Positions 23,180 to 63,837 of a stretch of 64,000 nucleotides of DNA are shown here, one piece after another. Each line of letters starts with the position of its first letter. Within the stretch, counting starts at the first letter, position 1. Both the position numbers and the translations under genes were made by a program. Under the pieces are notes generated by a model that saw nothing but the letters and a program-made list of their open reading frames with translations, searched no databases and was not told the DNA's origin. Source of the stretch: an uncultured Clostridia bacterium (GTDB taxonomy: Bacteria; Bacillota; Clostridia; TANB77; CAG-508); contig CANRAY010000001.1 of the NCBI GenBank assembly GCA_947628735.1, positions 10,391-74,390 of the forward strand, read 5' to 3'.

Positions 23180-23188
23180 ATTTTTCCC

Positions 23189-27182: not shown

Positions 27183-27193
27183 ACTATTTTACT

Positions 27194-27226: not shown

Positions 27227-27235
27227 TCCTTTTTA

Positions 27236-28570: not shown

Positions 28571-28583
28571 AATTACTCCTTCC

Positions 28584-29030: not shown

Positions 29031-29052
29031 ATTTGCCTCCTTAAAATTAATT

Positions 29053-31038: not shown

Positions 31039-31063
31039 AAATAACTCCTTTTTCACAACTTAT

Positions 31064-47007: not shown

Positions 47008-47170
47008 ATGCATACCTCTTTGTTTAAAATTTATATTTAATATTTTATATTTATTTATATATATAATTATTAAATATTCAAGATAGCTATATACACTATT
47101 TTTACAGTATTATTACGGTTTTTCAGCTTACACTAATTATTAAGTTTTTTTTACATTTTTGTCATAGTTT
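47008..47170 (-). promoter_or_regulatory. 5' region of P2, with a weaker copy of the conserved paralog upstream module
   Basis: It shares TTACGG ... ATTATTAAG ... ACATTTTTGT.AT with the P1 and P3 modules. A possible promoter is TTGAAT (47081-47076)-N17-ATAAAT (47058-47053), but AT-richness makes this weak. Confidence 0.3.
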
Positions 47171-47306
47171 TTTCAATTATTTACCAAATTTCGCCACATT
47201 TAATGATTCCCTAGTAAATTCTATATTACTGTAAACTTATTAGTTGCATTTATAAATAAATTATAGTAGAATAAAAACGTTATTGAAATGAAAGGATTTA
47301 AAACAT

Positions 47307-47798
47307 ATGCCAGTTATTTTAAAATATTTAATTACATTTGGAATCTCTATGGTACCTATTATTGAACTAAGAGGAGCTATCCCTGTTGGCGTTGGAATGG
47401 GATTATCTTATTTTGAATCATTTATTTGTAGTTTTATTGGAAATATCATTCCAATTTATTTTATTGTAAAATTCATTAGACCACTTTTTGATTTTTTTGG
47501 AAGATGGAAAATCTTTAAAAAAATTATTGATTTCGCCACAGAAAAAGCAACTAGAAACATTGAAAACAACCCACGTTTACAAAACTTTACTGCATTAGGT
47601 TTATTTTTATTTGTTGCTATTCCTTTACCTGGCACAGGTGCATGGGTTGGATCACTAATTGCTAATTTTCTAAATTTACCACCTAAAAAAGCTATTCCAC
47701 CAATTGTAGCCGGTGTATTTACTGCAGGAGTTATTGTTTTATCAATTACTGCAGTTGCTGCTGGTGGTATTCAAGCTATTTTTACACATACAATGTAA
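47307..47798 (+). CDS. Small polytopic membrane protein of the COG2426 / small multidrug export-like family
   Basis: 163 aa with about 4 TM segments. MVPIIELRGAIPVG and LPGTGAWVGSLIA are characteristic of that family as I recall it. It is the only plus-strand gene between P2 and P3. Confidence 0.6.
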   Translation: MPVILKYLITFGISMVPIIELRGAIPVGVGMGLSYFESFICSFIGNIIPIYFIVKFIRPLFDFFGRWKIFKKIIDFATEKATRNIENNPRLQNFTALGLFLFVAIPLPGTGAWVGSLIANFLNLPPKKAIPPIVAGVFTAGVIVLSITAVAAGGIQAIFTHTM

Positions 47799-47808
47799 TT
47801 TAAAAAAT

Positions 47809-47856
47809 AAAGAACTAAGAATCTAGCCATATTTATGAGCTAGATTTTTAGTTCTT
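47809..47856. terminator. Bidirectional terminator shared by the small membrane protein gene and P3
   Basis: AAAGAACTAAGAATCTAGC-loop-GCTAGATTTTTAGTTCTT, between convergent stop codons. Confidence 0.65.
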
Positions 47857-47884
47857 ATGGTAAATATTTACTTATATTTCAATA

Positions 47885-50800
47885 TTACAACTTTGCCTCT
47901 GTTTTACGTTTATAGAAAATTATGACTTCTGTAATTGATACTACAATAGCAATTATATAGACAATAAAGAATGTATAACCTGGAGCACCTGTTTTAACAC
48001 TCATAACTACTTCTGCCTCTGATGTATTATCTTTCTCGTTATTATCATCATAATGAGCATCATTATCAAAATCTTTTATCTCTGCTGTATTTATCTCTCT
48101 ACCAAAGTTTGCACTTCCTCTCTTCCATGTTAATTTTATTGTAAATTCTTTTGTTTCTCCTGGTTCTAAGCTTACTTCTGCCTCTAAGTTTCCATTTTTA
48201 TTTTCTGTCCACTCATCATATACTTCTTTTCCGATAGTAAAATGCTTTGGTAGTTTTTCTAATACTGTCGTCGTTCCTGCAATTTCTCCTGTGTTTGTTA
48301 CTCTTATCTTATATGTGATTTCTACGTCTGTGTCTTCCATTTCAGAACCCACAATCTCTACTTTTATTAGTTTTCCATCTAATACTTTCTGCTCTTCTCC
48401 ATTAATTACTGCTTTCGTTATTACTTTATCTACCTTAAAGTTGAATGTCTGCTTTCTATAGAAGTAAATTACTTCTTTATCTTCTTCTCCAAAGAATCCA
48501 TCTTGGTTTGTAGGTAATAATTCCTCTACTAAATCATAATATGGTATATCTAATGGGTCTGTTGTATATGGATCTCCTACATCTCCGGTTTGTTCTTCTC
48601 TATATGTCTCATATTCTCCTGTGTCTTCATCTGGATATAGAATTTCTTCTCCTGTATCTACATCTACGTGTTTTGTTACTACTTTTCCGCCAGGAATTCT
48701 TTCATAATAGTATTTTACGTAAGTATCTTCTTTCGTTACTATACCATTCTTATTATCTGGTTCTGGATCTGCTCTTCTATAGTTTGGTATATTTTCTCTT
48801 TCTGTTGTATACTCTTCTCCTATTGGATATTTTTCAACTTTTTCTGGTAATAATTCTTCTTCTGTATCTTTTTCTAAGTATTGCACAATTACTGTACCTA
48901 CTTTTTTCTTATAGTGATATACTACTTCTCCTCCTTCTTCTGTTAATGTACCATCTGTTTCTCCTTCTACATAGTCTAATTCATAGTCATCAAAATCTTT
49001 TGGTTCTGTATGATATGGATCTCCTATTTTTCCTGGTTGTCCTTCCCCTGGTATACGTTCTGGTGTAGCTAAATCGTTTCCGTCTTCATCTACCCATCTT
49101 ACATCAATACCTGGCGTTTCCTCATTAACATAGTAGAATGTTACTTCTATAGTACCGTCTTCATATACTCCGAATTCATTTCCTTTTACAGAATCAAATA
49201 CATAACCTGGAATAATTTCTTTTCTTGCTGTATATGTATCTCCTACTCTTCCTTCTTCCTCATATTTATATTCTTGTTGCACGCCATCTACTTCATGAGT
49301 AAGTTCTTCTCCTGTTTTCTTATCTTTATAATGCACTATCAATTTTCCTCTAATATCAACTGGTGTAGTTTCAATATCTGTTACTACATTACTTGAATTA
49401 TTTGCATAAAGGTCTAATATTGCATCTACTTTATTTGAAAGACTATTAATACTACTATCAATATCATTAAATACTAACACAATATTAGTTTTGAATTGAA
49501 TTGAATAATTACCATTTTCATCTGTATTAATATTATTCATTGAAATTTCCCATGTTATTGTATTTGTATTTTCATCATAAACACCTGTATAAGTACCATC
49601 ACTTAATACAGAGCTTTCTGCATCAATATGATATGGCAAATAATCAATAATCTTTAATTTAGCATCTCCACGGTAATCTGTTAATGTTGCTTGATAATTA
49701 ATAGTATAATTTACACCTTCTCTAAATGATGTTATCTTTTCTGGTCCATCTTTATTTATTACTGCATCAATATTTTCAGCTATTGTTCTGTACCTATTTG
49801 TAATAATAATTGGATTTTCACCAGACAATGTTGGTGCCTCATAAAATAGTAAATCTTCTGGATTTGCTTCTATTTCTTCAACACTATACACAATTTTATT
49901 TCCTAAAGCAGAATATTTATCTAAGTTTTCAAAAGTTGTGGTCCAATTATTTCCTGCATTTAATACAGCTCTTTTATCTGTTCTAACTCCATCTGCAATT
50001 AATTCAACAATTATACTTGATGGTCTTTTTCCATTATGATCATCACCATCTTCCCAAACTTTTTGAACAGCTTGATTTACTATGTATTTTTGCTCTACTG
50101 TTTCCTTATCTTCTTTTTCATCAACTTTTCTTTTTTCATTTGGTGCTGGTGTATAATTCTCTGGATTATATAATATAACTTTTGCATTAACTTTATTTTC
50201 TAATGGTAATAAAACATTTTGATCTTCATATACAATTTCTATATTTTTACTAATTGTTTCTTCATATATTCCATCTGTAAATGTATCGATATTCTTTTCA
50301 ATTGTCCATGTAATTGTTCTACTCTCAGGATGATATGTTCCACCATCTAATTTTGACGCACCCTTATTAATAGCAGCTGGTAAAATATCTTTTAATGCAA
50401 TTGTTACTTTTCCTTTATATGTATCCACTTTTACTTTTTGTGTAATATTATATTTTACGACACCATTTTCTTGTGTTAATACTTTAATTTCTGCTGTCTT
50501 ATCCACGCTATTTTCTATTGTAGGATCCTTCAATTTATAATAATAATTTGCATGTTTAGTTTCTTTTTCTCTAATTCCTGTATGATTGTCACTTTCTGGT
50601 TCTGGATTAATACATTCATAATTTGGATCAAGTTCTTCACCTGTTAATGGACTAGTAGTATAAGTTTCTCCAACTAAGCCAGGTGCTAATTGTCTATCTT
50701 CTACTAATTTGTCAGTTGTTCTTCCACCTTTATCTTCATCATATATATAGTGGTGTACAATAACATCTCCTTGAATCTCTAAATTAGCTGAATGATTATC

Positions 50801-53800
50801 CTCTGTTGTTTCTGTTTTAACAATAACATCTTCCTCATTTTCTTCCTGTATTAAATCAACAGTTACTTGAACTTTATTATTAATACTTCCTGTTAGTTCT
50901 CCTCCATCCGGATAAATATATTTTAACTCCAAATTTTTTATACGATTAATAATATTATTTTGTCCTTCAAATGAATCAACTGTTAATATTTCTTCCCATG
51001 TAATTGTATAGGTTCCATCAATTGCTTGATAATGACCTCCATTTAATTGTGAATTTGCATCATCAATTGGGAAAGGTAATGTATCTACCATTGTTATTTT
51101 TGCTTTTCCTTTGAAGTCTTTAATTTCAGCATTATATTCAATTGAATATCTTACTTTTGCATTTACATCAGCTACTGTAACATCTCCTGATTTATCAACA
51201 CTATGATCTACTATTGGTTCAGGTTTTTTATATGGTGTATCTATTTCATTTGTTTCTTTGCCATCTACCACTGCAACGTTTTTAATAATAGCATCTTTAT
51301 TTTGATAATTTACAGTAACTTCGAAGCTTACAGTTGTCTTCATTCCAGCTTTTAGCTCAGAAATTTTCCATGTTATTTCACCTTGACCATTATAAACTCC
51401 ATCATTATCAATATGTTTTAAAACTGTTCCTTCTGGAATTTTATCTTTTACTACAATTTTAGATACATCAACTTCACTAATATTTTCTACAGTAATGATA
51501 TATTTAATAACATCTCCCACTGTTACTGAATTTTCTGGAAGTTGTTCTTTTTCTTTATTTGAAATTTCCACTGTTTTGTAATATTTCATTACAGGAGTTT
51601 TGGTTTCATTCGTTTCTATTTCTTTTGGATCAGGTTCTTCTGGATCTTGATTTGTTTTACTTTCTTGATATGTAGCTTTATTACGTATTGTTACCTGAGG
51701 TTGATTTTCTATATTTAATACTCTTACTTCAAAAATTACCTTAGATGTTGAATTTGCTTCAACCTTTACATCAATACCATCCCTTAAATTATCTTCTGTA
51801 TAAGTACCTTCTACTCTCATGTCATTTGAATCTAGTACTTCAATACTATCTGAAACAAACTCTGTATTATCTGGTGCAGTATCTTTTACTTTTACTGTTG
51901 TTGCTAAATCTCCTTTGTTTGTTAAAGTAATTGTATACTTGATTTTTTCACCTTCAATTACATATTCTCTACCATATTCAGATGTAGCCACTTTTTCAGC
52001 AACTATATCTGTTTCAACATATGGATTTTCAACAATATTTGTTTTTCTTCCTTCTGGCTCTTTTGTTGCATCATCAATAACAGTTGCAACATTTTTAATT
52101 GTCGCACCTTTCTCCAAATCTTTTACTTTTACTTTAAATTCTACTTTTTTCTTTGCCCCTGCATCAATAGTTACTGAAATACCACTCTCTAACTGTGTAT
52201 CATCAATACCTTGATTTTCTGACTCCCAAGTATCCTCATCATTTTTGTATTTCATAACTTTAATACTATTGGCTACTAAATCAGTTCCTGTTGGAACATT
52301 ATCTTTTACTTTAACAGTTGCTGGAGCTTTTCCTGTACTATTATCTAATAAAATAGTATAAGTAATAACTTGACCTGCAGTTACTGCTTCTTTAGGATCA
52401 TTCATTTTGCTTACTTTTAGATCTGATTTATCTACTACTGTTTCTACTTTTGGAGTTTCCTTTCCATCTACAGTAGCTATATTCTCAATCTTTCCAACTT
52501 TAGCATCACCCTCTAAATCATTTACAGTAACTTTAAAGCTTACAACAACACTTGAATTTTCCTTAACATCTACATCTATACCAGATTCTAAATCTGCTTC
52601 TTTAACAGTAGTTCTTTCTTCCTCACCTACTTTTACACTTCCTTCTACAAAAGTAGTTCCATCAGGTGCAGAATCTATTACCTTTACTTTTTTTGCTAAG
52701 TTACCACTATTAGTAATAGTAATATAATAAGTAAGTGTATCATTTGGAACCGCATATGGTTGTTCTGAACTAATTTCTACTGTTTTCTTCATTGAAATAT
52801 CAGATCTCTTATATGGATCTTCTACTTCATTTGTTTCATGCTCATCTTTTGGATCTGGATCTGGTTTTGGATCATCTGGATTATAATTTGGCCCTACTAC
52901 TGTATAAGTTCCTTTATTTACAATTTTTTCTACTCCTGCTAATTCTTTTACTGTTACTTGGAACTCTAACGTTTTTTCTTCACCTGGAGCTACCTTTACA
53001 GTAATTCCACTTTTCAAATCTTCTGCCGTATAATCTCCTTCAGATTTTGGTTCTTCTTCTCCTGAGCTTTTCTTTACTTTAATGCTCTTTTCTACCAATT
53101 CTACTTGTTCTTCTAAAATAGGATCTTTAATTGTAACAGTTCCTTCTGCTTTTCCACTATTTGTAATAGTTAAAGTATATGTTATAACATCTCCTGTTGT
53201 AACATATTCATTTTCTATTTCTGATGATTTTGTAATATTTATTTCTGGTCTTGCATAATCAGTTTCTGTTTCATTAGTAGGATGTTCTCCTACCGTTGCT
53301 ACATTTTTTATCTTATGTCCTTCTGGAATTTCTACTACAGTTACTTCAAAACTTACTGTTTTAGTTTCTCCCTTTTCTCCATCATGTCCTCCTGCTAATG
53401 AGTCTATTGTCCATGTTATTTCGTTAGTTTCTTCACTATAATTTTCTTGATTATCTGATGATTTATATTTTGTTCCATTAGGTATTTTATCTTTAATAAT
53501 GATATCACTTGCATTTTCTTCACTTATATTGCTTACTTCTATTGTATATTTTATTGTATCTCCCATAGTAGCACAATTATCTTTTACCTGTCCCTCTACT
53601 TTTCTTGTTATTTCCACAGTTTTTTTAGTAACAATAACTGGTGTTTTAGTTTCTACTGTTTTATCTTCTGGTTTTGGTTCCGGATGATCAGGTTGAGTAA
53701 TAGTAGCAATATTCGTAATTGTTTCTTTAGTTTCATCTGTTATTTTATTTACTTTTACTCTAAATTCAAGTACTGCTTTTCCTTTTGCTGGAACACTAAT

Positions 53801-56800
53801 ATCAATACCATCCTTTAACTCTTGTTCAGTATATACAGATCTAAGTGAAGCATCATTTATTTTGATAATAATACTATCATCAACAAATGTTGTTCCTTCT
53901 GGAGCAGAATCTTTTACATTTGCTGTTCCATCTAAATCTCCACTATTTGTTAATGTAATTGTATATGTAATTTCTTCTCCTTCCATTGCATATTTTCTAG
54001 TTGTTCCATCTACTAATTTTACAAATGCATCTTTTTCTCCTGTAATAACTGCTTCTTTATATGTATTTACAACTTGTACTGTGTGAGTTTCTGGTTGCTC
54101 TTGATTTGGTATATCTTCTGTAACAGTTGCAACATTTTTAATTTCAGCACCATTTGTTAAATCTTTTTCTATTTGTGATACTTTTACCGAAAATTCTACT
54201 GTTGCTATTGTATGTGCTGGAATTTCTATAGATATTCCATTTTTCAAATTATCTTCACTATATGAATTTCCTTCTGATGGATTTTGTTTTTCTTCACCTA
54301 TTTTTACAATAATACTATTTTCAACAAATGTTGTACCCTCTGGAGCCGTATCTTTTACAGTTGTTTTTGCAGGAGCAGTTCCATTTGTATTATCTAATTT
54401 GATTGTATATGTAATTGTATCATTTACTTTTACTGCTGTTTCAGAATCTGGATTATTTATTTTACTTACTTTTAAATCTGAAGCATATTCTTTTATTGGC
54501 TCACTAGTTGGATTATCCTTTGGATCATCAGTTGGATCTTCTCCTGGTTCTTCATCATTATCTTCTATATGAGCTGTATTAATAATTTCTCTTTCTGTTT
54601 CTTCTTCATTTAAAGGTAAAACTTTTACTCTAAATGTTAATGTTTTTGATTTTCCTGCTTCTAAAGTTACATCAATTCCATTTATTAAATCTTGTTGCGT
54701 ATAATCAGTACCATCAAGTTTTACTTGTACTTGATTATCACTATCTTCAATTTTAATACTTTTATCAACAAATTCTGTACCTGCTGGAATCTCATCTTTA
54801 ATTTTAGCTGTTCCTTCTTTGTTTCCGTTATTAGTTACAGTAATAGTATATTCTATAAAATCTCCTGCTACTGCATATGTTCTTTCTTCCTCATCTTCAG
54901 CTAATATTAATTTAGCTGTTTTTGTAGCAATAATATCTGCCGCTTCATAAGTATTTTCAATAATAACATAAACAGTTGGTTGATGTTCATAATCATTATT
55001 TTCTATTCTTATTGTAGTATCATCCAACTCAGAAAGATTTTCTAATTTTATTTTTCCATCTTCATCTCTTGAAACAGTAAATTTATGTTCTTTGTCATCT
55101 TTTACATATTTATTATTTCCTACTTCTTCTTGAGTAACAGTCCATGTATCTTCTAATTCATTTTCCCATGTTGCTTTTCCATCTTCTGCTACTTTGATAT
55201 TATCTTCTTTTTCCTGTTTCTCACCTTCTACTTTGATTTTTGAACCTGTAATATAATCTTCAGAACCTTTTACCTTATTCTCTACAACAATATTATATTT
55301 GTATTTATTTTGAACATCTAATCTAACAGTTGGAACATCAGATTCTGGATCTTCAATTTCTGTTGCTTTTATAAATTCTTTTGTTTTTTCTTCCTCATCT
55401 AAAATTTCAAATACAAGATCTCCATTAAGGTCTGTTGTTAAACGGAACTTAATTTCATTTTCATCTCTAATATATGGATCACTGATTTTACTTTGATGAA
55501 CTGTATACACTGCTCCTACATATAAATCATCATAAACTGCAGGATTATTTCCTGTAACTTTATCATTATTCCAATCTTCTCCAAGATTTTCACCTTTTAT
55601 TTGGAAAGTAGCTTCAGCATTTGTTACAGTTTCTGTTGCATTTGGAATTAATGACTCTGTTTTAAATTTATAATCGCTAATTTTTAATTTATATTTTTGT
55701 CCACCTATTTGTAGTCCAACTTTATCTGGTTCAGTTGAAGTTTCACTAGACGTACCCTTAGAATGGAAATAAATAGCATGATCTGCATAAGTCTTTTGTC
55801 CATAAGATAATTTTTCTGGTAAATCAATCCAGTAATAGAAACTAAAATTAGACTTTGCTGGAACTTCTGAACTTATTTCTATTTTATATGATTTAATATT
55901 TTCCCAATCAGTTGGATGTTCTTCCCATTCCGAACCATCTTTTGTTGCATTTTCATCTGTTGAATAATATACTTTATAACTTAAATTTTGTTTATAATTC
56001 TCGTCTATTTTAATTCCTGTTTCTTCCATTGTTGTTGAGAATTCTGATCCAAGCTCTATACTGCTATTTATTACATGATCATTTCCTACAAATGGAATTC
56101 TTCCTACAATAACTGTACCTGTAATCGGATTAGAATATCCATTTGAAACTAATATATTTACTCTTGCTTTATTACCTGATGCACTTGGTATAATTGAAGC
56201 TATATTTGGTCCTTCTACAATAGAACCTAATTCATCAAAATCTGTAATTTGTGTTTTGGTTACTAAATTATCTGTTTGTGCATAATATATTACTGGTTTT
56301 TCAATTCTGGTCTTCTCATTCTTATTACTGTCACCATCAATATCATAAATATCATCAACATATTCTGATGATCCTAGATATGCAACATCATAATATTCAC
56401 AAATACTGTTATATCCAAATACTCTAATTCTATCAGCTGATTCTAGTGTAGGATTTTCAACTAATGATTGAAATTTTAAAAGTGAGTCTGAGTTTGATGT
56501 AATAATTCCTTCTGTTTCTATTTTCATCACAATATGATTTTCTATTTTTTCTATTTTTACTTTTTTAACTTTTACATTCACTCTACTAGTCGAAAAACTA
56601 CTATATGAAACTTTTGTAAAATTATCTGGAAACTCTATATATAACGTTGGATTTACCCATGCTGTAAATTGTCTATCAATATCACTATCTCCTGCAAAAA
56701 AATGAATTATCATAGTATTTTTATTCAATTTTTGTGGGTCAAATGTATAATTTTCTTTATCAAACTCTGGATAATATGATGTACTACCTTCTCTATAATC

Positions 56801-58570
56801 TACATTTTTTACATCACCATTAATTGAAGTTAGTTTTGCTTCATCACTATATTTAACAAGTCCATGTAATGTAGAATATAATTTTACAAATTTCTCAAAT
56901 TCATCTTTATCATGTTCTGTTTTTAATATTTGATTATCAATATTTTTTATATGTTCTATCTTAATATTACCTGTTGATACTGGTTTACTTGTTTCTATTC
57001 TAATATGCTCAATAGGAGTATCATATTTTATTAATTCATTTGCATCAGTATATCTAATTTCCTTAACAACTTTATCAGAATCTGCATCATAAACATAAAC
57101 AATTCCATTTTCACCCAAAACATCAAATGTTGTCTCAGAAACACGAATACCTTCATAATGAATAAATGGATCCATGTCGTAAAAATTACCATCTGAATCT
57201 GCAAAATGATCTGTATCTTCTTCATAAGCTTCATCTAAAACATTTTTTGCATTTGAATAATCTTCTGCAAAAACGAATTTCTCTATTTTTTCATCATACA
57301 AATAGAAATCTAGGTTCCAGTCAACCTTATAGTTAACTTTCATGTCAACATTTTTATCATAGATTAATCTACTATTTGTTTTAGATAATAATGATTCATC
57401 AATATCAATATTATATAAAAGCACAGAACCTTTAGGATTTTTTACATCAACTGACATTGTTACACTTTTTTCTTTAGACTGCACTTTTTCTCTTTCACCA
57501 TTTATGTTAGTTGACCATCCCTCTAGATATGCACTTGCTGTAAAGTCAATATTATTAGTTGTGGCTTCTATTTCATCATATACTTCAATTGGATATTCCA
57601 TAACAATATTAGTAAAATACCATTGTTCCCCATAAATAACATAACCTTTTCCCGCATCTGACAATGGATTTTCTATACTAATTTTTAATTCACCTGTTGA
57701 CTTATCATATGATTGCTCTTTAATGTTTTTTTTGTAAGTACTCATATCATTAACATGAATTGCTGTAGGATACTGTCCTCCTATACTTGGGGCTGTTCCA
57801 CTAATAACAAGTCCAGCATCTGGTGCCATTACAGTATCAGTATCTCCAGTTTTTGTAAATGCCCATGGATTATAAACAAGATATACCTTTTCTTCTTTTT
57901 CATCTACAATAAATAAATTATCTTCAGCATAACACCAAAAACCATACTCATATTCATAATCAATACTTCCATACCAATCAATTCTAAATTCAATTTCCTT
58001 TTTAATTTTTTGAGTCTGACCACTTTTATCTATATAATTACCACTAAAGGTTAACTTATTTGTTCTAGAAAGAAGATTAACATTAAATGTATCCATAAAA
58101 GTATCAAAAACTTTTTGTTCAAAAGTAAGGTCAATTGGTTTTGTAGTACCGTTATTTATTGTATTGAAATAAATTGAATTACCACTTACACTTCTAATTT
58201 GGTCATCTGTAGAAATATTTTTTATCATTGAAAAATTGCCATTTGATTCCCAAGATATTTGTGCATTCTGTAACTGTCCTTCTGTTTGGACTGTTAATGT
58301 AGTTTTCAATACAACTTGTTCATTTAGCTCTTGCCTAATACCCCTATATTTTTTTCCATCTGTTGATTCGAAATATGCATCAAACTTTACAAATTCAGAA
58401 CCTGTATCTGATGAATTTTCTGGTAATTGTTCAAAGTTTTCAAAAGATTCTGTGTTTTTAACTGCTTTTACTTCGACATTTGAAAAACTACCCAATATTG
58501 CTGTCATAATACAAATAATTGCAATAATTAAAAACAAAAACTTTAATTTAACCGATACCTTTTTCTCCAT
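47885..58570 (-). CDS. Giant cell-wall-anchored surface protein paralog P3 (3561 aa)
   Basis: It starts with a signal peptide (FLFLIIAIICIMTAILGSFSNVEVKA) and a ~950-aa N-terminal region homologous to P1 and P2 (FRIDWYGSIDYEYE, NPKGSVLLYNIDIDE, IEHIRIETSKPV, IVEGPNIASI, VGRIPFVGN, YADHAIYF). SpaA-like folds and nine DUF11-type repeats follow. Then come isopeptide-D2-like modules, a Cna-B-type domain (about 49870-50090) and four tandem MucBP-like repeats (about 48450-49350). It ends in SVKTG + TM + KRK. Confidence 0.92.
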   Translation of the reverse strand: MEKKVSVKLKFLFLIIAIICIMTAILGSFSNVEVKAVKNTESFENFEQLPENSSDTGSEFVKFDAYFESTDGKKYRGIRQELNEQVVLKTTLTVQTEGQLQNAQISWESNGNFSMIKNISTDDQIRSVSGNSIYFNTINNGTTKPIDLTFEQKVFDTFMDTFNVNLLSRTNKLTFSGNYIDKSGQTQKIKKEIEFRIDWYGSIDYEYEYGFWCYAEDNLFIVDEKEEKVYLVYNPWAFTKTGDTDTVMAPDAGLVISGTAPSIGGQYPTAIHVNDMSTYKKNIKEQSYDKSTGELKISIENPLSDAGKGYVIYGEQWYFTNIVMEYPIEVYDEIEATTNNIDFTASAYLEGWSTNINGEREKVQSKEKSVTMSVDVKNPKGSVLLYNIDIDESLLSKTNSRLIYDKNVDMKVNYKVDWNLDFYLYDEKIEKFVFAEDYSNAKNVLDEAYEEDTDHFADSDGNFYDMDPFIHYEGIRVSETTFDVLGENGIVYVYDADSDKVVKEIRYTDANELIKYDTPIEHIRIETSKPVSTGNIKIEHIKNIDNQILKTEHDKDEFEKFVKLYSTLHGLVKYSDEAKLTSINGDVKNVDYREGSTSYYPEFDKENYTFDPQKLNKNTMIIHFFAGDSDIDRQFTAWVNPTLYIEFPDNFTKVSYSSFSTSRVNVKVKKVKIEKIENHIVMKIETEGIITSNSDSLLKFQSLVENPTLESADRIRVFGYNSICEYYDVAYLGSSEYVDDIYDIDGDSNKNEKTRIEKPVIYYAQTDNLVTKTQITDFDELGSIVEGPNIASIIPSASGNKARVNILVSNGYSNPITGTVIVGRIPFVGNDHVINSSIELGSEFSTTMEETGIKIDENYKQNLSYKVYYSTDENATKDGSEWEEHPTDWENIKSYKIEISSEVPAKSNFSFYYWIDLPEKLSYGQKTYADHAIYFHSKGTSSETSTEPDKVGLQIGGQKYKLKISDYKFKTESLIPNATETVTNAEATFQIKGENLGEDWNNDKVTGNNPAVYDDLYVGAVYTVHQSKISDPYIRDENEIKFRLTTDLNGDLVFEILDEEEKTKEFIKATEIEDPESDVPTVRLDVQNKYKYNIVVENKVKGSEDYITGSKIKVEGEKQEKEDNIKVAEDGKATWENELEDTWTVTQEEVGNNKYVKDDKEHKFTVSRDEDGKIKLENLSELDDTTIRIENNDYEHQPTVYVIIENTYEAADIIATKTAKLILAEDEEERTYAVAGDFIEYTITVTNNGNKEGTAKIKDEIPAGTEFVDKSIKIEDSDNQVQVKLDGTDYTQQDLINGIDVTLEAGKSKTLTFRVKVLPLNEEETEREIINTAHIEDNDEEPGEDPTDDPKDNPTSEPIKEYASDLKVSKINNPDSETAVKVNDTITYTIKLDNTNGTAPAKTTVKDTAPEGTTFVENSIIVKIGEEKQNPSEGNSYSEDNLKNGISIEIPAHTIATVEFSVKVSQIEKDLTNGAEIKNVATVTEDIPNQEQPETHTVQVVNTYKEAVITGEKDAFVKLVDGTTRKYAMEGEEITYTITLTNSGDLDGTANVKDSAPEGTTFVDDSIIIKINDASLRSVYTEQELKDGIDISVPAKGKAVLEFRVKVNKITDETKETITNIATITQPDHPEPKPEDKTVETKTPVIVTKKTVEITRKVEGQVKDNCATMGDTIKYTIEVSNISEENASDIIIKDKIPNGTKYKSSDNQENYSEETNEITWTIDSLAGGHDGEKGETKTVSFEVTVVEIPEGHKIKNVATVGEHPTNETETDYARPEINITKSSEIENEYVTTGDVITYTLTITNSGKAEGTVTIKDPILEEQVELVEKSIKVKKSSGEEEPKSEGDYTAEDLKSGITVKVAPGEEKTLEFQVTVKELAGVEKIVNKGTYTVVGPNYNPDDPKPDPDPKDEHETNEVEDPYKRSDISMKKTVEISSEQPYAVPNDTLTYYITITNSGNLAKKVKVIDSAPDGTTFVEGSVKVGEEERTTVKEADLESGIDVDVKENSSVVVSFKVTVNDLEGDAKVGKIENIATVDGKETPKVETVVDKSDLKVSKMNDPKEAVTAGQVITYTILLDNSTGKAPATVKVKDNVPTGTDLVANSIKVMKYKNDEDTWESENQGIDDTQLESGISVTIDAGAKKKVEFKVKVKDLEKGATIKNVATVIDDATKEPEGRKTNIVENPYVETDIVAEKVATSEYGREYVIEGEKIKYTITLTNKGDLATTVKVKDTAPDNTEFVSDSIEVLDSNDMRVEGTYTEDNLRDGIDVKVEANSTSKVIFEVRVLNIENQPQVTIRNKATYQESKTNQDPEEPDPKEIETNETKTPVMKYYKTVEISNKEKEQLPENSVTVGDVIKYIITVENISEVDVSKIVVKDKIPEGTVLKHIDNDGVYNGQGEITWKISELKAGMKTTVSFEVTVNYQNKDAIIKNVAVVDGKETNEIDTPYKKPEPIVDHSVDKSGDVTVADVNAKVRYSIEYNAEIKDFKGKAKITMVDTLPFPIDDANSQLNGGHYQAIDGTYTITWEEILTVDSFEGQNNIINRIKNLELKYIYPDGGELTGSINNKVQVTVDLIQEENEEDVIVKTETTEDNHSANLEIQGDVIVHHYIYDEDKGGRTTDKLVEDRQLAPGLVGETYTTSPLTGEELDPNYECINPEPESDNHTGIREKETKHANYYYKLKDPTIENSVDKTAEIKVLTQENGVVKYNITQKVKVDTYKGKVTIALKDILPAAINKGASKLDGGTYHPESRTITWTIEKNIDTFTDGIYEETISKNIEIVYEDQNVLLPLENKVNAKVILYNPENYTPAPNEKRKVDEKEDKETVEQKYIVNQAVQKVWEDGDDHNGKRPSSIIVELIADGVRTDKRAVLNAGNNWTTTFENLDKYSALGNKIVYSVEEIEANPEDLLFYEAPTLSGENPIIITNRYRTIAENIDAVINKDGPEKITSFREGVNYTINYQATLTDYRGDAKLKIIDYLPYHIDAESSVLSDGTYTGVYDENTNTITWEISMNNINTDENGNYSIQFKTNIVLVFNDIDSSINSLSNKVDAILDLYANNSSNVVTDIETTPVDIRGKLIVHYKDKKTGEELTHEVDGVQQEYKYEEEGRVGDTYTARKEIIPGYVFDSVKGNEFGVYEDGTIEVTFYYVNEETPGIDVRWVDEDGNDLATPERIPGEGQPGKIGDPYHTEPKDFDDYELDYVEGETDGTLTEEGGEVVYHYKKKVGTVIVQYLEKDTEEELLPEKVEKYPIGEEYTTERENIPNYRRADPEPDNKNGIVTKEDTYVKYYYERIPGGKVVTKHVDVDTGEEILYPDEDTGEYETYREEQTGDVGDPYTTDPLDIPYYDLVEELLPTNQDGFFGEEDKEVIYFYRKQTFNFKVDKVITKAVINGEEQKVLDGKLIKVEIVGSEMEDTDVEITYKIRVTNTGEIAGTTTVLEKLPKHFTIGKEVYDEWTENKNGNLEAEVSLEPGETKEFTIKLTWKRGSANFGREINTAEIKDFDNDAHYDDNNEKDNTSEAEVVMSVKTGAPGYTFFIVYIIAIVVSITEVIIFYKRKTEAKL
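47987..48001 (-). other. Putative non-canonical sortase recognition motif SVKTG of P3
   Basis: AGTGTTAAAACAGGT encodes SVKTG. It is followed by APGYTFFIVYIIAIVVSITEVIIFY and KRKTEAKL. Confidence 0.55.
51306..54878 (-). repeat. Array of nine diverged DUF11-type (conserved repeat domain) modules within P3
   Basis: The recurring pattern is GD.I.YTIT..N.G...... V.D..P.GT.FV..SI.V ... L..GI.V.V......V.F.V.V, about every 85-130 aa. I counted nine copies by eye in the translation. Confidence 0.75.
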
Positions 58571-58750
58571 AATCTTACCTCTTCTTGTTAATTAATATAA
58601 TAAATATTATTATATATATATTAATTAGCTTTTAGAAAACCGTCAATTACTTGTATACGTGTATTTTGGCCCATTTTTCTTTCCAATTTACGGAAAATAA
58701 TCGTTTCTACATTATTAAGAATTATTGACATTTTTGTTATATTTTAGACA
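58571..58750 (-). promoter_or_regulatory. Conserved 5' regulatory module of P3, including a SigA-type promoter (-35 TTGACG at 58641-58646, -10 TAATAT at 58618-58623)
   Basis: It has the same TTGACG-N17-TAATAT, RBS and upstream blocks as 1483-1660. It contains TACGGAAA at 58689-58696, and an inverted copy lies just upstream at 58781-58788. Confidence 0.55.
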
Positions 58751-58790
58751 CATTACATATGCGGAGAGCAATTCTTAAAATTTCCGTAAG

Positions 58791-58815
58791 AAAAAGAGTT
58801 CCAAACAGGAACCCT
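58791..58815 (-). terminator. Terminator after the 45-aa ORF (end of the two-component operon)
   Basis: The minus strand reads AGGGTTCC-TGTTT-GGAACTCT followed by TTTTCTT. Confidence 0.6.
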
Positions 58816-58827
58816 TGATTTTAATTT

Positions 58828-58965
58828 TTATTCTTCATTTTTTTCTTTCTTTTCTTCTTTTGGTTTGTCATCTTCTAATATGATATTATCTGGTAATTCC
58901 AAACCCATATCTTCTAAAATTTTAGCATATTCATCTTCTAACTTTCTATCTTTCATTAATCCCAT
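58828..58965 (-). CDS. Small acidic hypothetical protein, 45 aa (not in the ORF track)
   Basis: My translation is MGLMKDRKLEDEYAKILEDMGLELPDNIILEDDKPKEEKKEKNEE. AGGAG lies 8 nt upstream. No terminator separates it from the kinase gene, and its own terminator follows. Confidence 0.45.
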   Translation of the reverse strand: MGLMKDRKLEDEYAKILEDMGLELPDNIILEDDKPKEEKKEKNEE

Positions 58966-59026
58966 AATCTTCAACTCCTATATTTATATTATAGAGTGTA
59001 TGCTATAAAATATCAAGCTTAATATT

Positions 59027-61063
59027 CTATTTCATCTTTTCAAATTCAATTGTAATCTTAAACAAATCTCCATCCAAGTAAATATTAAACTTGCCACCCT
59101 GAAGTTCCGTTAAACTCGTAGCAATAGAAAGTCCTAAGCCGCTTCCTTCCGTATTTCTTGAAACATCTCCTCTAACAAATCTTTGCATTAACTCATCAGC
59201 CGTGATATTCAATTTTTCCTTTGAAATATTTTTTATTTGTATAATTACATCTTCACCCTGATCAATAATATCTGTATACACTCTTGTATTATCTAAAGCA
59301 TATTTAGATACATTTGAATACATATTTTCTAAAATACGATACATATATCGATTATCTGCATAAATATAAATTGGCTTTTCTGAAAAAGTAATAATTTCTT
59401 CTAAATGATTTACCTTAAACTTATCTTCAAACTCTCCTGAAACCTGCTTAATTAATTCATTAATCTCTAATTTTTCTTTATTTAGTTTAATATTACCTGA
59501 AGAAGCTTTTGATGCTTCAACTAAATCCTCTGTTAATTTTTTTAATCTCTGTGATTTATTATCTAGTATTGTTAAATATTCTTTTGCCTTTTCATTAGTA
59601 ATACCATCTCTTTTTAATAAATCAATATAATTAATAATAGATGTAAGAGGTGTTTTTATATCATGAGACACATTTGTAATTAATTCTGTTTTTAATCTTT
59701 CACTTTTTAACTGTTCTGCAACTGCATTTGAAAGTCCTCCAGCAATATCATTAATATAAATAGCAATTTGCTTCATCTCACCTTTAAATTTACTTGTATC
59801 TAAATGAATATCTGTATTTCCTTTATAAATCTCCTCTAAAGCTTTTTTTAATTTCTTAAAAGCTACTATACCTCTAATTATAGCAGAAAATGTTAGTACA
59901 TATAATATCATCAGGCAAATAGCCCCAATAACAGATCTTCTAAATAGAACATAGATAAGCCAATTTGCTATAATAAACCCAATAAATAATATAGAAACTC
60001 TCAAAGATACTTTTGTATTTTCCATCATTTCTTTAATTTGTTTATATATCCAATAAACAAATGTTGTTTCAATAAAAGTATGTGTTTTTAATCTCTTAAC
60101 AATTGTTTCTAAAAGTACAATATTAACCACATAAAACGTACCAAGACCCATACATAATGCAATTAACGCTATAATAATTTCATTATATACTCCAATAAAA
60201 CATAATATAAATGAAAACATAAAAAATGGTATTGATAATAAAATAACTATTTCCAGGCTCCATTTATCTAAAAAGTCTAAATGTATCCCTTCTTCTCTGC
60301 TAGTATGACCTATACCTAGCAAAATCACAAAAATCATAACGCAAAACAGAATTATAATAGTTGGTATAAGATAAATAGACCATTCTCTTAATGCTAAAGT
60401 CGTGTTATAAACCCAATAACGTGAAAAATAAGAATCATAATTTGGTACATCTTCTAACATACACGTATAGATTTCGTATTTGCCATCTTTCAAATATTCA
60501 CGATAAAATGAAGTGGTCGCATCCATATTTCCTTTTAGTTTATCTATTGATGTATCAACTTTTCCATTAACACATTTCCAATATAAAGAACTTGACAAAA
60601 TTTGAGATTTAATTGTTGAAACTTTATTATTAGCCACATTATCTTCTAAATTGGTATAAATTGCACCATTTTCATGATCGATAATTAAATAGTTAAAATT
60701 AGATTGAAACGCCATATAATAAATAGGCACTTCAGAATCATAATCTTCTTCACTAATCAAATGATATGAATGATAACCATACATTAATCTATCACCATAT
60801 AATTCTTCCCCATATTCTAGGGTTAAATCATAATAAACAGAATTAATTGATTCAATTTCATTAATAGCATTTTTTAGTGATGTCGAATATGAATCTGCAA
60901 AATCTACTGATTCGAAATAAGTTTCTCCTCTTCTCATAGAATCTGTACTACAAATCAAAGATATAATACAAGCCAATAACAAAACTAATAATATGGGAAT
61001 CATAAAATAAGACAAATTTTTAAATACACGTATCCAACAAATTTTCTTTTTTGTCTTTTCCAT
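59027..61063 (-). CDS. Sensor histidine kinase with a large N-terminal extracytoplasmic domain and a multi-TM block
   Basis: After one TM segment comes a ~190-aa extracellular region, then about 6 TM segments and a HAMP-like linker. The H-box is LITNVSHDIKTPLTSIINYIDLL and the HATPase domain contains EGSGLGLSIA. Confidence 0.88.
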   Translation of the reverse strand: MEKTKKKICWIRVFKNLSYFMIPILLVLLLACIISLICSTDSMRRGETYFESVDFADSYSTSLKNAINEIESINSVYYDLTLEYGEELYGDRLMYGYHSYHLISEEDYDSEVPIYYMAFQSNFNYLIIDHENGAIYTNLEDNVANNKVSTIKSQILSSSLYWKCVNGKVDTSIDKLKGNMDATTSFYREYLKDGKYEIYTCMLEDVPNYDSYFSRYWVYNTTLALREWSIYLIPTIIILFCVMIFVILLGIGHTSREEGIHLDFLDKWSLEIVILLSIPFFMFSFILCFIGVYNEIIIALIALCMGLGTFYVVNIVLLETIVKRLKTHTFIETTFVYWIYKQIKEMMENTKVSLRVSILFIGFIIANWLIYVLFRRSVIGAICLMILYVLTFSAIIRGIVAFKKLKKALEEIYKGNTDIHLDTSKFKGEMKQIAIYINDIAGGLSNAVAEQLKSERLKTELITNVSHDIKTPLTSIINYIDLLKRDGITNEKAKEYLTILDNKSQRLKKLTEDLVEASKASSGNIKLNKEKLEINELIKQVSGEFEDKFKVNHLEEIITFSEKPIYIYADNRYMYRILENMYSNVSKYALDNTRVYTDIIDQGEDVIIQIKNISKEKLNITADELMQRFVRGDVSRNTEGSGLGLSIATSLTELQGGKFNIYLDGDLFKITIEFEKMK

Positions 61064-61089
61064 TTCCTTCTCCTTTTAAATAGTTATTT

Positions 61090-61791
61090 TTACTTCTCTA
61101 AATTTTCTATTTTATACCCTACACCCCAAATTACTTTTAAATATTTAGGTTCCCTAGGATTAATTTCTATCTTTTCACGAATATGACGAATATGCACAGC
61201 AATAATATTTTCCGCTCCATAACATTCTTCTTCCCAAACATTTTGATAAATCTGTTCAATAGAATAAACAATTCCTTTGTTTTTTGTTAGAAACTTTAAA
61301 ATATTATATTCTGTAGGTGTCAATTTTACATTTTTTCCTTCTACAATTACTTCTTTTGTTATATCATTTATTTCTAACTGACCAGTCCTATAAATTTGTT
61401 CTTCTTCTTTCACCATAGATCCCAATGAAGTATATCTACGAATTTGTGAATTTACTCTAGCAATTAATTCCAAAGGATTAAAAGGTTTGGTAATATAATC
61501 ATCTGCTCCATTATTAAGTCCAGCTATTTTATCATAATCTTCTGATTTAGCAGATAACATAATAATTGGAATAGCTTTATCTTTACGAATTATATTAGCT
61601 ACACTAATTCCATCTAATTTTGGCATCATAACATCTAATAATACCAAATGAATATCTTTTACTTGATCTATTATTTCTAATGCTTCTTTTCCATCATAAG
61701 CTTTTAAAATATTATATCCTTCTTTAGAAAGATAAATTTCAATAGCTTTTACAATTTCCTTATCATCATCTACTACTAAAATATTATACAT
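61090..61791 (-). CDS. OmpR/PhoB-family response regulator
   Basis: It has a receiver domain (ILVVDDD ... LLDVMMP ... SAK) and a winged-helix output domain (LTPTEYNILKFL ... IWGVGYK). Confidence 0.9.
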   Translation of the reverse strand: MYNILVVDDDKEIVKAIEIYLSKEGYNILKAYDGKEALEIIDQVKDIHLVLLDVMMPKLDGISVANIIRKDKAIPIIMLSAKSEDYDKIAGLNNGADDYITKPFNPLELIARVNSQIRRYTSLGSMVKEEEQIYRTGQLEINDITKEVIVEGKNVKLTPTEYNILKFLTKNKGIVYSIEQIYQNVWEEECYGAENIIAVHIRHIREKIEINPREPKYLKVIWGVGYKIENLEK

Positions 61792-61905
61792 CTTAAACTC
61801 CCCTTATTTACTAGGCTTTATTATAACATAAAAAAACCCTTTTTTCTATCATAACTATAACACATAATTATTAAGAAAAAAGGTAGTAAATTATTAATTT
61901 TTTCT

Positions 61906-61938
61906 TAAAAAAAGATAGTCTAATTTAATAGACTATCT
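61906..61938 (-). terminator. Terminator of the AI-2E gene, overlapping its last codons and stop
   Basis: The minus strand reads AGATAGTCTA-TTAAAT-TAGACTATCT followed by TTTTTTT. The TAG stop lies inside the loop and 3' arm. Confidence 0.7.
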
Positions 61939-63062
61939 CCACCTTTTAATCTAATTTTATACTCTACATACTCTGTCACAATTAATTTCAAAATAGCTGC
62001 AATTGGAACTGCTAAGAACATACCCCAAACGCCGAAATATGCTCCTCCGATAGTAACTCCAAAGATAACTAATAGTGGACTAATTTTTAATGATGTACCA
62101 ATAATTTTTGGATTAATAATATTAGCATCAATTTGTTGTAAAATAATAACAACAATTAGCATGGCAATTGCTTGACCTAATCCTCCTGTTAAAAGAGTAA
62201 TTAATGCTGCTATTGTTACTGCAATAATAGCTCCAAAATATGGAATCATATTAAATAATCCTATCATAAAGCCTAATAACACTGCATATTTAACCCCTAA
62301 AATTGACATTCCTATTGATGTAAGAATACCTACAACAATACCATCTATAAATTGACCTGCAATAAAATTAAAGAAAATAGAATTACTTCGATCAAAATAT
62401 TTTCCTAAATGTTTATAGCTTTTCTCTTTTAACACTGCTCTTGCCAATCTCTTAAAGAATTCCAAAATCTCTCTTCTTTGAAGTAATAAATAAACAGAAA
62501 CAATAACTGCAACAAAGAAATCGAAAATTTTTGTAGCAAAACTAATAGCTCCTTTCGCATAATCTGCAATTTTTTCTAAGTTAATATATTGTTTAAAATC
62601 AATATTTTGAATATTATTAATAATCTCTAAAATAGCTTCATTTTTTAATATAGAATCATCTGGTAAACTAGCATATCCATTTATAGTGTCATTATAGTAT
62701 CCCTGAAAATTATTAACTAAATCTATAATACTATTAGATATTACTGGTATTAAAAATGTAAAAGAAATAACAATAAGAACTAACAAAATAGTATATACAG
62801 TAAAAACAGATAATCCTCTTGCTCTTTTTTGAATAAATTTAACCTTTATTTTTTGATAAAGATTCTCTATTTTTCTACATGGTATGTATAACAAATAAGC
62901 AATTAAGATTCCAATTAAGAATGGCATCAAAACATCTAATAATTCTTTAATCCAATTTCCTATATCCTGAAAATTATCTAATGTTTTGTAAACTACTATA
63001 ACTGCTACTGCAAATAAAAACCAATATAACCATTTTGTTATTGTTTTTTTCTTTCCTTCCAT
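61920..63062 (-). CDS. AI-2E family transporter (UPF0118/PerM-like permease)
   Basis: 380 aa with about 8 TM segments. The C-terminal pattern (PYFGAIIA ... NIINPKIIG ... SPLLVIFG ... GMFLAVPIAA) is typical of the family. Confidence 0.85.
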   Translation of the reverse strand: MEGKKKTITKWLYWFLFAVAVIVVYKTLDNFQDIGNWIKELLDVLMPFLIGILIAYLLYIPCRKIENLYQKIKVKFIQKRARGLSVFTVYTILLVLIVISFTFLIPVISNSIIDLVNNFQGYYNDTINGYASLPDDSILKNEAILEIINNIQNIDFKQYINLEKIADYAKGAISFATKIFDFFVAVIVSVYLLLQRREILEFFKRLARAVLKEKSYKHLGKYFDRSNSIFFNFIAGQFIDGIVVGILTSIGMSILGVKYAVLLGFMIGLFNMIPYFGAIIAVTIAALITLLTGGLGQAIAMLIVVIILQQIDANIINPKIIGTSLKISPLLVIFGVTIGGAYFGVWGMFLAVPIAAILKLIVTEYVEYKIRLKGGDSLLN

Positions 63063-63075
63063 TTTTGTACTCCTT

Positions 63076-63837
63076 TTATATTTCTAATCCTACTGGACAA
63101 TGATCACTACCCATAATTTCTGAAAAAATATAACTTTCTTTAATTTTTTCTTCTATCGATTTAGATACAATAAAATAATCAATTCTCCATCCTACATTCT
63201 TTTCTCTTGCATGAAACATATATGACCACCATGAATAGCAATTTTCTTTATTAGGATATAAATAACGAAAACTATCTGTAAATCCTGACGTTAATAATTC
63301 GGTCATTTTACCTCTTTCTTCATCTGTAAAGCCTGCATTTCTATGATTTGTTTTAGGATTTTTTAAATCAATTTCTTGATGAGCTACATTTAGATCCCCA
63401 CATAAAACAACAGGTTTTTTTTGATTCAATTTTAATAAATATTCCCTAAATGCATCTTCCCATATCATTCTATAATCTAGTCTTTCTAATTCTCTCTTTG
63501 AATTAGGGGTATAACAATTTACTAAATAAAAATCATCAAATTCTAAAGTAATAACCCTGCCTTCTTTATCATGTTCTTCTATACCAATGCCATAGTGAAC
63601 AGAAATTGGTTCTTGTTTTGTAAAAACTGCTGTACCTGAATATCCTTTTTTCTCAGCACTATTCCAATATGTATGATATCCTTTAAAAATATCCATAATT
63701 TGTTCATCTATTTGATCTTCTTGCATTTTTGTTTCTTGTATACAAAATATATCCGCATTTTGCTGTTCAAAAAAATTTTTAAATCCTTTATTAATAACCG
63801 CTCTTAAACCATTAACATTCCATGAAATTAACTTCAT
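63076..63837 (-). CDS. xth: Exodeoxyribonuclease III
   Basis: It has MKLISWNVNGLRA, CIQETK, GDLNVAH and SDHCPV, which are EEP-fold ExoIII signatures. Confidence 0.95.
   Translation of the reverse strand: MKLISWNVNGLRAVINKGFKNFFEQQNADIFCIQETKMQEDQIDEQIMDIFKGYHTYWNSAEKKGYSGTAVFTKQEPISVHYGIGIEEHDKEGRVITLEFDDFYLVNCYTPNSKRELERLDYRMIWEDAFREYLLKLNQKKPVVLCGDLNVAHQEIDLKNPKTNHRNAGFTDEERGKMTELLTSGFTDSFRYLYPNKENCYSWWSYMFHAREKNVGWRIDYFIVSKSIEEKIKESYIFSEIMGSDHCPVGLEI

Follow-up and report, generated by a model that had tools for sequence, protein, structure and literature searches.

The giant surface-protein genes P1, P2 and P3 in a 64,000-nt stretch of DNA from an uncultured Clostridia bacterium (the window; GCA_947628735.1, contig CANRAY010000001.1, positions 10,391 to 74,390) are preceded by a shared non-coding module. 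We interpret this module as a selectively maintained transcriptional control region of a giant adhesin family, composed of a sigma-A promoter and upstream operator sites that might act by looping, and assign this interpretation a probability of roughly 60%. The blocks that make up the module are real and occur specifically at these genes, and purifying selection has kept them, with their rigid spacing, in different species. A reading made from the DNA alone (hereafter the sequence-only reading) had traced the non-coding identity to either a shared site for a trans-acting regulator or a 5' RNA element. The former is the best explanation, the upstream DNA being more conserved than neutral coding sites. 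The system is of a familiar kind, and its distinctive trait is an architecture that is unusually rigid across species.

Conservation of the module relative to coding DNA

In an alignment of 174 columns, 4 of them with gaps, the upstream DNA of P1 (1483-1657) and P3 (58571-58747) shows 80.5% identity, which bears out the near base-for-base similarity described in the sequence-only reading. The similarity ends sharply about 8 nt upstream of the most distal block (block A below). Beyond this point identity is 23-38%, the background for the composition, and the flanks are the terminators of different genes. Toward the gene, identity drops to 63% in the first 150 nucleotides of the coding region, which encode the signal peptide. 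The module is thus an island of conservation. Plain recent duplication had been proposed to show itself in synonymous sites as similar as the upstream DNA, and this is not the case for P1 and P3. Their four-fold sites are 62.6% identical (n=99), with a composition-corrected distance of d=0.61 (95% confidence interval 0.39-0.99) compared to d=0.23 (0.16-0.32) for the module (Fisher p=0.0016).

Between P2 and either P1 or P3, synonymous sites are saturated (35-48% identity versus ~43% by chance). Despite this saturation, the distal block of P2 is 83% identical and CCGTAA-N8-KAAAAAT is intact at a 46-nt offset. A distal-block consensus derived from P1 and P3 only has a sole third match in 64 kb, namely P2 (3 mismatches; 0.00 expected), and CCGTAA-N8-KAAAAAT matches three times in the window, each time in a module (0.36 expected). 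Blocks A and B do not occur elsewhere in the 64-kb window, and a module profile gave no further copy across all loci compared. Composition-corrected distances and dinucleotide-preserving shuffles served as controls.

Elements of the module in the window

All upstream elements listed in the sequence-only reading are present, on the minus strand like the genes. The ribosome-binding site (RBS) and start codon, AGAGGTAAGATTATG (P3 58568-58582; P1 1494-1480), lie closest to the coding region and are preceded by a (TA)5 tract in P3 (58611-58621), an (AT)6 tract in P1 (1514-1525) and a (TA)5 tract in P2 (47056-47065). In P3, the tract overlaps or trails the -10 hexamer of a predicted sigma-A-type core promoter, TTGACG-17-TAATAT (58618-58646), and covers the likely transcription start. 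The same core promoter is predicted in P1 (1528-1556); P2 has no alignable proximal promoter. An ACACG-N4-CAAG block with a variable central N4 adjoins the -35 hexamer (P3 58650-58662; P1 1572-1560). Further upstream lies block B, which reads TTTTCCGTAA-N8-GAAAAATGG in P3 (58671-58697), TTTTCCGTAAGAAAGTAAGAAAAATGG in P1 (1581-1607; pattern as in P3) and AAAACCGTAATAATACTGTAAAAATAG in P2 (47096-47122).

The distal block, block A, follows the pattern T[T/A]ACAAAAATGT[A/C]AATAATT[T/C]TTAATAAT in P1 and P3. It is TAACAAAAATGTCAATAATTCTTAATAAT in P3 (58711-58739), where a 14-bp palindrome, TNACA-AAAA-TGTNA, is followed by TTAATAAT, TTACAAAAATGTAAATAATTTTTAATAAT in P1 (1621-1649) and TGACAAAAATGTAAAAAAAACTTAATAAT in P2 (47136-47164). 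P2 therefore retains both blocks (47164-47136 and 47122-47096) with the 46-nt offset unchanged, as the sequence-only reading had indicated for parts of them. A third element, block C, lies beyond the interval first noted: TTACGGAAA in P3 (58781-58789), an inverse of the block B left arm, and TAGGGAA in P1 (1704-1710, inside the 5' arm of the smc terminator stem) and P2 (47207-47213). The interval of about 180 bp originally proposed is real, yet the true extent of the module is about 220 bp since block C is located upstream of block A. In P2, blocks A and B resemble each other as direct repeats, and P1 contains an 83-nt repeat; both features were dismissed as they are absent from other modules.

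Footprinting in relatives

P3 (47885-58570, minus strand) encodes 3561 residues; its domains are DUF11, DUF7927, Cna_B and MucBP, and a transmembrane segment lies at the C-terminus. P2 (39178-47013, minus strand) encodes 2611 residues, and RBS spacing makes the ATG at 47007 its likely true start. Of P1, the 5' part (1-1482, minus strand; 494 codons) is contained in the window, the gene being truncated by the left window end. The P1, P2 and P3 proteins carry a signal peptide, repeats of the DUF11, DUF7927, Cna_B and MucBP families and a membrane anchor at the C-terminus. They share an N-terminal domain of ~490 residues (P1 1-1482, P2 45500-47007, P3 57100-58570, minus strand), for which Pfam holds no model and which is 59% identical between P1 and P3 and 44-45% between P2 and P1 or P3. 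An exhaustive HMMER profile search recovered 276 clusters (50% identity) with this domain, always at the N-terminus of proteins of up to 3307 residues.

The family was reached only via this search and a metagenome scan. Single-protein and alignment scans of genome contigs and word-index protein searches gave no match to the N-terminal domain, and plasmids gave none by tblastn. The metagenome scan yielded L003, a 1458-residue homolog with an N-terminal domain 34% identical. Its upstream DNA carries TTTCCGTAA-N8-GAAAAATG (0.00 expected by shuffling) and, exactly 24 nt past block B, TTTACA-17-TAAAGT. The best four matches of the HMMER search were looked up and provided five more upstream regions (L069a, L069b, L070, L071 and L073; L072 is a duplicate of L071). 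L069a and L069b are two giant genes of the metagenome-assembled genome GCA_947631745.1, and L069a lies downstream of smc, as does P1. The alignment of copies from relatives that the sequence-only reading had called for could thus be made, and the module architecture precedes six family genes of other assemblies.

Anchored on CCGTAA, the nine modules (P1, P2, P3, L003, L069a, L069b, L070, L071 and L073) align without gaps over ~125 nt. They begin with block A, T-N-ACAAAAATGT-N-A-N7-TTAA(T/A)AA (consensus form TNACAAAAATGTNA-N7-TTAATAA), which 17 variable nucleotides separate from block B, TTCCGTAA-N8-GAAAAATGG, followed by AAAAAATTACAC. A variable N4 and CAAG-NN-A come next, then a -35-like hexamer, a variable 17-nt spacer, a -10-like hexamer and the (TA)4-6 tract. 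The distance from the start of block A to the start of CCGTAA is 46 nt in all eight modules that have block A, and block B is 24 nt from the -35 hexamer in 8/9. Two modules are partial, as L003 lacks block A and P2 the proximal promoter. Block A is 62-93% identical over the eight modules carrying it.

This architecture is kept in relatives with saturated synonymous sites and a protein identity of 31-48%. P1 and L069a share 47% of protein residues and 50% of four-fold sites, which is about chance, yet their modules agree at 82% of 128 gap-free columns, with block A at 93% and the upstream flank at 33%. L071 and L073 retain 69-79% identity in block A and the exact spacing despite a protein identity of 31-33%. 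Conservation and fixed spacing in the face of saturated synonymous sites argue for selective constraint on cis-acting DNA rather than mere recent duplication.

The same comparisons bear on the view that the module has no dedicated function and is a residue of duplication, its similarity being maintained by conversion among the paralogous genes or owed to A+T-rich sequence of low complexity. P1 and P3 are indeed paralogs, and by our own estimate from the alignment their runs of identity are no longer than expected at 80% identity. However, the module is an island between dissimilar flank and coding DNA and is conserved between different organisms, beyond the reach of conversion within a genome. 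Moreover, P1 is more similar to L069a and L069b in the module (82-84%) than to P3 (76% in the same comparison), although the L069a and L069b proteins are more diverged, and low complexity is excluded by the corrected distances and shuffles. Conservation across diverged relatives rules out all three sources of similarity, namely recent duplication, conversion within a genome and low complexity, and we consider a functionless module largely refuted and very improbable.

Some observations on these loci stand apart. The second giant gene of GCA_947631745.1 is called as two products of 184 and 3708 residues (L069 12212-13924) with an intact upstream module; this split, which falls in the N-terminal domain, could reflect a frameshift, decay to a pseudogene or faulty assembly. 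In L071/L072 (181-2500), a family member of 2259 residues lies directly downstream of an excisionase-like helix-turn-helix gene, a tyrosine integrase and, by eye, a tRNA-like gene, which suggests that the adhesin with its module is able to move on an integrative element. A 501-residue L012 protein next to Sm_multidrug_ex proved unrelated to the family. Viral contigs gave 46 matches to the block B pattern; all are attributable to chance, most fall in coding DNA, and no family member lies beside any of them. Some IMG/VR phage contigs (L022 7150-7300; L056 and L065 near the matches) contain tandem short repeats such as TTCCGTAATTTTTCCGTAAAAATACCGTAG, which matched the block B pattern by chance and are unrelated to the module; these repeats may be phage iterons or operator arrays.

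The predicted proximal promoter and the (TA)n tract

A simple position weight matrix (PWM) with an A+T-rich background places the best promoter of P1 and P3 at TTGACG-17-TAATAT (10.1 bits, the top score) and that of L003 at TTTACA-17-TAAAGT in the equivalent position (6.8 bits). Equivalent hexamers occupy the same alignment columns in 8/9 modules, with a spacing of 17 bp that falls within the sigma-70 range of 16-18 bp, and they are close to TTGACA and TATAAT. The hexamers vary in the manner typical of promoters (TTGACG, TTTACT or TTTACA at -35; TAATAT, TAGTAT, TATAAT or TAAAGT at -10), and the spacer is free to vary. Transcription would then start ~7 nt past TAATAT, ~38-47 nt before the ATG and in or beside the (TA)4-6 tract. 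Relative to this predicted start, block B would span about -84 to -60 and block A about -128 to -100. As the best promoter is located downstream of the distal blocks, these are probably not transcribed.

The N4 of the ACACG-N4-CAAG block is GCGC, GTAT, AGGT, AGGC or TCCT in different copies. An initial impression that ACACG-CGCG/TATA-CAAG forms a 22-bp dyad with compensatory changes (p=0.003 and 0.018) was abandoned when more sequences revealed N4 to be simply variable. A-tract phasing or an intrinsic bend was likewise rejected, because the tract spacings are irregular.

The dinucleotide tract raises the question of phase variation. Either slippage of (TA)n would alter the promoter, or the stretch bounded by blocks C and B would be an invertible promoter flipped by a recombinase. 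(TA)n tracts of at least five units occur three times in the 64-kb window, always within a module, and TA tracts of 4 to 6 units, differing in length between copies, recur in L003, L008, L009-L011, L069a, L069b, L070 and L073. In L003 and L073, and only there, the tract lies inside the -35/-10 spacer. Inverted 8-9-bp copies, blocks C and B, flank the promoter-like block A. As in the Mycoplasma vlp and vlhA families, the same upstream cassette, with a dinucleotide repeat in it, precedes paralogous surface-protein genes. A precedent exists in the Haemophilus hifA/hifB promoter with its (TA)9-11 repeat (PMC2651432). In promoters of the hif type, the repeat sits between the -35 and -10 hexamers, and the number of units determines how far apart these are.

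In contrast to hif, the tracts here are short and usually follow the -10 hexamer (in P1, P3, L069a, L069b and L070, as well as in the more distant L008 and L009-L011), so a change in length would leave the hexamer spacing unaltered. They are also invariant between two samples: the second assembly of the same organism (ERZ27249283; L001) has an identical module, (TA)n and orientation. A hif-like switch is hence unlikely for the P1 clade. Inversion is disfavored by copies of only 7-9 bp that are mismatched within most modules, given that invertons usually have 15 bp or more, by the single orientation in all nine modules and the second sample, by the unconserved DNA between blocks C and A, and by the lack of a recombinase gene consistently near module-bearing loci. 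Compared to the hif, vlp and vlhA cassettes, conservation resides mainly in the non-repeat blocks. Taken together, a phase-variation switch appears quite improbable.

The two assemblies differ upstream of P3 solely by a T4/T5 indel (window ~58776-58779, L001 ~3249) that adjoins block C (TTACGGAAA-TTTT) outside the conserved blocks. For the 3' part of the histidine kinase (HK) gene, a gap-free comparison of the window with L001 also suggested differences at multiples of three, although the encoded protein is identical.

RNA element or DNA operator

The possibility of a 5' RNA element raised by the sequence-only reading did not hold up. Rfam gave no match at the gathering score in the whole window, and a permissive scan of the region gave only chance-level hits (E >= 0.5). 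Leaders folded from a hypothetical start at block A have z-scores of 0.02, -0.93, -1.09 and -0.54 against shuffled sequences, and RNAalifold predicts 0 pairs on four leaders and a single 5-bp helix of -1 kcal/mol on nine. Without Rfam match, fold or covariation, a structured 5' RNA is not supported, and a module far better conserved than its genes is most likely a promoter with regulator-binding sites rather than an RNA switch. The c-di-GMP (cyclic di-GMP) riboswitches of Clostridioides difficile surface proteins likewise form a conserved non-coding element of >100 nt upstream of large adhesins in a low-GC Firmicute. The module differs from these riboswitches in lacking an Rfam match, whether at gathering or at permissive thresholds, as well as any thermodynamic signal or covariation.

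Another reading is that of a long leader. In this scenario block A (AT[T/G/A]ACA-18-AATAAT) would be the real promoter, and block B with the DNA downstream would form a ~130-nt 5' untranslated region that acts at the level of RNA or elongation, be it as a protein-bound RNA motif, as an ops-like pause that recruits a NusG paralog for processivity over 8-11 kb, or as a roadblock operator. Block A passes a sigma-70 scan in P1, P2 and P3 (9-10/12 matches) and is the only candidate in P2, and the lowest-energy fold of P1 pairs UUUUCCGU with AUGGAAAA. RfaH and LoaP are antitermination factors, and by analogy to their targets giant genes are plausible clients of antitermination. However, the -10-like part of block A is lost in relatives (AATAAA in L069a, AAAAAA in L071 and L073), its PWM score is 3.3-4.5 bits compared to 10.1 for the proximal site, and L003 retains block B and the proximal promoter without block A. 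Block C would be outside a transcript starting at block A, and the ops element GGCGGTAGNNTG has no match in the window. Together with the negative Rfam, folding and covariation results, this renders a functional long leader unlikely.

Block C and possible looping

Block C, TA[C/G]GG(G)AA, is found upstream of block A in 8/8 modules with sequence in this region, compared to a background frequency of 1.1e-4 per nucleotide and strand, and is thus not a chance occurrence. It is the reverse complement of the block B left arm TTCC[G/C]TA (P3 58788-58782) and reads TTA[C/G]GGAA in its longer form. The central C/G of block C does not covary with the block B copy of the same module, which suggests recognition by a protein and speaks against pairing in RNA or arms for recombination. 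The distance between the centers of blocks C and B is 94-95 bp in P3, P2, L069a and L069b, 106 bp in P1 and 116-117 bp in L073 and L071, corresponding to 9, 10 and 11 turns at 10.5 bp; in L070 it is 183 bp and off phase. A mobile element such as a MITE (miniature inverted-repeat transposable element) between blocks C and B was rejected, since the interior upstream of block A is unconserved and variable in length.

A motif that occurs twice, ~90-120 bp and an integral number of turns apart, with one copy near a sigma-70-type promoter, resembles the looping operators of AraC (O2/I1-I2), LacI (O1-O3) and GalR (OE-OI). The two arms of block B, about two turns apart, are reminiscent of the adjacent AraC half-sites I1 and I2. 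None of these operators is matched by the module motif TTCC[G/C]TAA, and the module differs further in having a third conserved block, block A, inside the putative loop. Moreover, for the module spacing alone suggests a loop, and L070 is off phase. A tentative and rather doubtful extension is a "light-switch", in which one bivalent regulator reads TTCC[G/C]TAA and either bridges blocks C and B over 9-11 helical turns, sequestering block A, or fills both arms of block B beside the promoter.

Candidate regulators

The sequence-only reading had pointed to two regulators encoded in the window as possible partners of the module, the adjacent response regulator (RR; 61090-61791) and a WalR-like regulator. 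The adjacent RR and its HK (59027-61063) are of a generic OmpR/VanR type (268 bits, cut-off 350). The block Exo_endo_phos, AI-2E, RR and HK is conserved in every relative examined, mostly followed by a small open reading frame (ORF) and/or Sm_multidrug_ex and then rpoB, without a giant gene there. These relatives were reached through homologs of the HK in search of orthologous P3 promoters and inform on synteny only. P2 and P3 were hence inserted into this neighborhood, and the adjacency is a result of insertion. Other module-bearing genes have unrelated neighbors (smc; ComEA-like/PBP5; tRNA and integrase; an intein-containing gene). Judged from gene order, the adjacent pair belongs to a conserved housekeeping neighborhood and is not a dedicated partner.

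The second candidate pair comprises an RR (23189-23938) at 337 bits, close to the YycF/WalR cut-off of 340, and a partner gene at 21755-23179. WalR-type regulators control cell-envelope genes and recognize direct-repeat hexamers with the consensus TGTWAH-N5-TGTWAH. Either OmpR-family RR of the window might bind the blocks as direct-repeat sites, and hexamers with an 11-bp period that match this consensus with one mismatch are present in the P1 and P2 modules. However, such matches are not enriched across the window (42 versus 39.2 expected), and the P3 module has none. The most conserved positions (ACAAAAATGT, CCGTAA and ATGG) form no direct repeat. Given also the synteny of the adjacent RR/HK in relatives without giant genes and the unrelated neighbors of other module-bearing loci, we consider such binding rather unlikely. 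Most probably, the gene for the regulator lies in another part of the genome.

In Firmicutes, paralogous surface or virulence genes can have regulon boxes in common, such as the PrfA box TTAACA-N2-TGTTAA of Listeria internalin genes, the PlcR box TATGNA-N4-TNCATA and the ComR/Rgg boxes. The module resembles these regulons in its 14-bp palindrome with a 4-nt A/T center (TNACA-AAAA-TGTNA). By analogy, the palindrome in block A suggests that one dimeric helix-turn-helix regulator might serve the whole family. The module differs from the PrfA, PlcR and ComR/Rgg boxes in that it matches none of their consensus sequences exactly and that further blocks accompany the palindrome at fixed distances. 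PrfA sits at the usual -41.5, whereas the palindrome center would be at about -121 from the predicted start. More broadly, consensus boxes of PrfA, PlcR, CRP, cre, CodY, Spo0A, VirR and sigma-54 have no exact match within the three window modules. MucBP genes of Lactiplantibacillus have an MbpR motif, YAATGGTGCCA (PMC11880434), which was considered as a counterpart of the blocks and is unrelated to them.

P2 and P3 (~19 kb; window 47014-63837) are flanked by the HK and small ORF on one side and by Sm_multidrug_ex and rpoB on the other. In relatives (L012, L014, L015 and L018; HK 53-58% identical), Exo_endo_phos, AI-2E, RR, HK, small ORF, Sm_multidrug_ex, rpoB and rpoC are contiguous or interrupted by other cargo, for example an ABC transporter, a pilin-like gene or an insertion sequence (IS) element; in L067, the shared part ends with the HK. 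The site next to rpoB thus appears to be an insertion hotspot. Just downstream of the HK, a small acidic ORF of 45-48 residues (MGLMKDRKLEDEYAKILEDMGLELPD...) is found at 58828-58974 on the minus strand. It has no family assignment, and an ORF of 43-52 residues occupies the same place in the relatives L012, L013, L015, L018, L019 and L020. The WalR/WalK-like pair (21755-23938; a short PAS kinase) is near ftsH, tilS, dnaB, rplI and gdpP (24203-31056), which resembles the classical walRK neighborhood of Firmicutes.

Proposed mechanism and its weak points

In the preferred reading, that of a promoter with operator sites, transcription would start near the (TA)4-6 tract from a promoter of the sigma-A type (TTGACG-17-TAATAT in P1 and P3), with TACAC-N4-RCAAG adjoining the -35 hexamer. 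The block B arms TTCCGT and ATGGAA form an imperfect inverted repeat. The blocks would be bound by one or more trans-acting factors encoded elsewhere, resulting in co-regulation of all family members. A bivalent protein might bridge blocks C and B and place block A inside a loop. Promoter use, protein binding to the blocks, the sign of regulation and looping are what we infer from sequence.

Several points weigh against this mechanism. The modules are not phylogenetically independent, since P1 and L069a are positional orthologs, each located on the downstream side of smc, and L071 is closely related to L073. Promoter prediction is unreliable in DNA of 77-81% A+T. P2 has blocks A, B and C without an alignable proximal promoter, and the sigma-70-like site that ranks highest there coincides with block A (ATGACA-18-AATAAT). 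Block A may thus be the promoter in at least one copy, which would put block B inside the transcript; alternatively, P2 may be poorly expressed. None of the regulator consensus sequences compared is matched exactly. The helical-phase argument comprises three independent distance classes only, and L070 combines its off-phase distance of 183 bp with a degenerate block B.

Other features of the window

The window has a G+C content of 29% and carries core genes on the minus strand, namely smc (1730-5281), rpoB, rpoC, gdpP, rplI, dnaB and ftsH. It also contains a MazF/PemK-family toxin gene (7787-8146), a gene for a 231-residue MinE-domain protein (11125-11820) with MinE at residues 20-91 and ~140 C-terminal residues without family assignment, and a fragment of a PD-(D/E)XK-family transposase (17927-18373; 148 residues, model positions 70-200 of 229).

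Implications for the adhesin family

With 2,000-3,700 residues, giant adhesins are costly to make, and they probably determine the attachment of these uncultured gut bacteria to the host or to particles. The cis-regulatory code described here provides a search pattern with which the regulon can be enumerated in metagenome-assembled genomes. The module can serve as bait for the identification of the regulator, and its fixed spacing is a basis for mutants that test looping. A tempting annotation is corrected at the same time, as the neighboring two-component system is not the cognate regulator by virtue of its position. If the light-switch arrangement were true, the operator set would provide coordinated on/off control of every giant adhesin gene, and the same cis-code would have been kept across several uncultured gut Firmicute species while the adhesins themselves diverged to ~30% identity.

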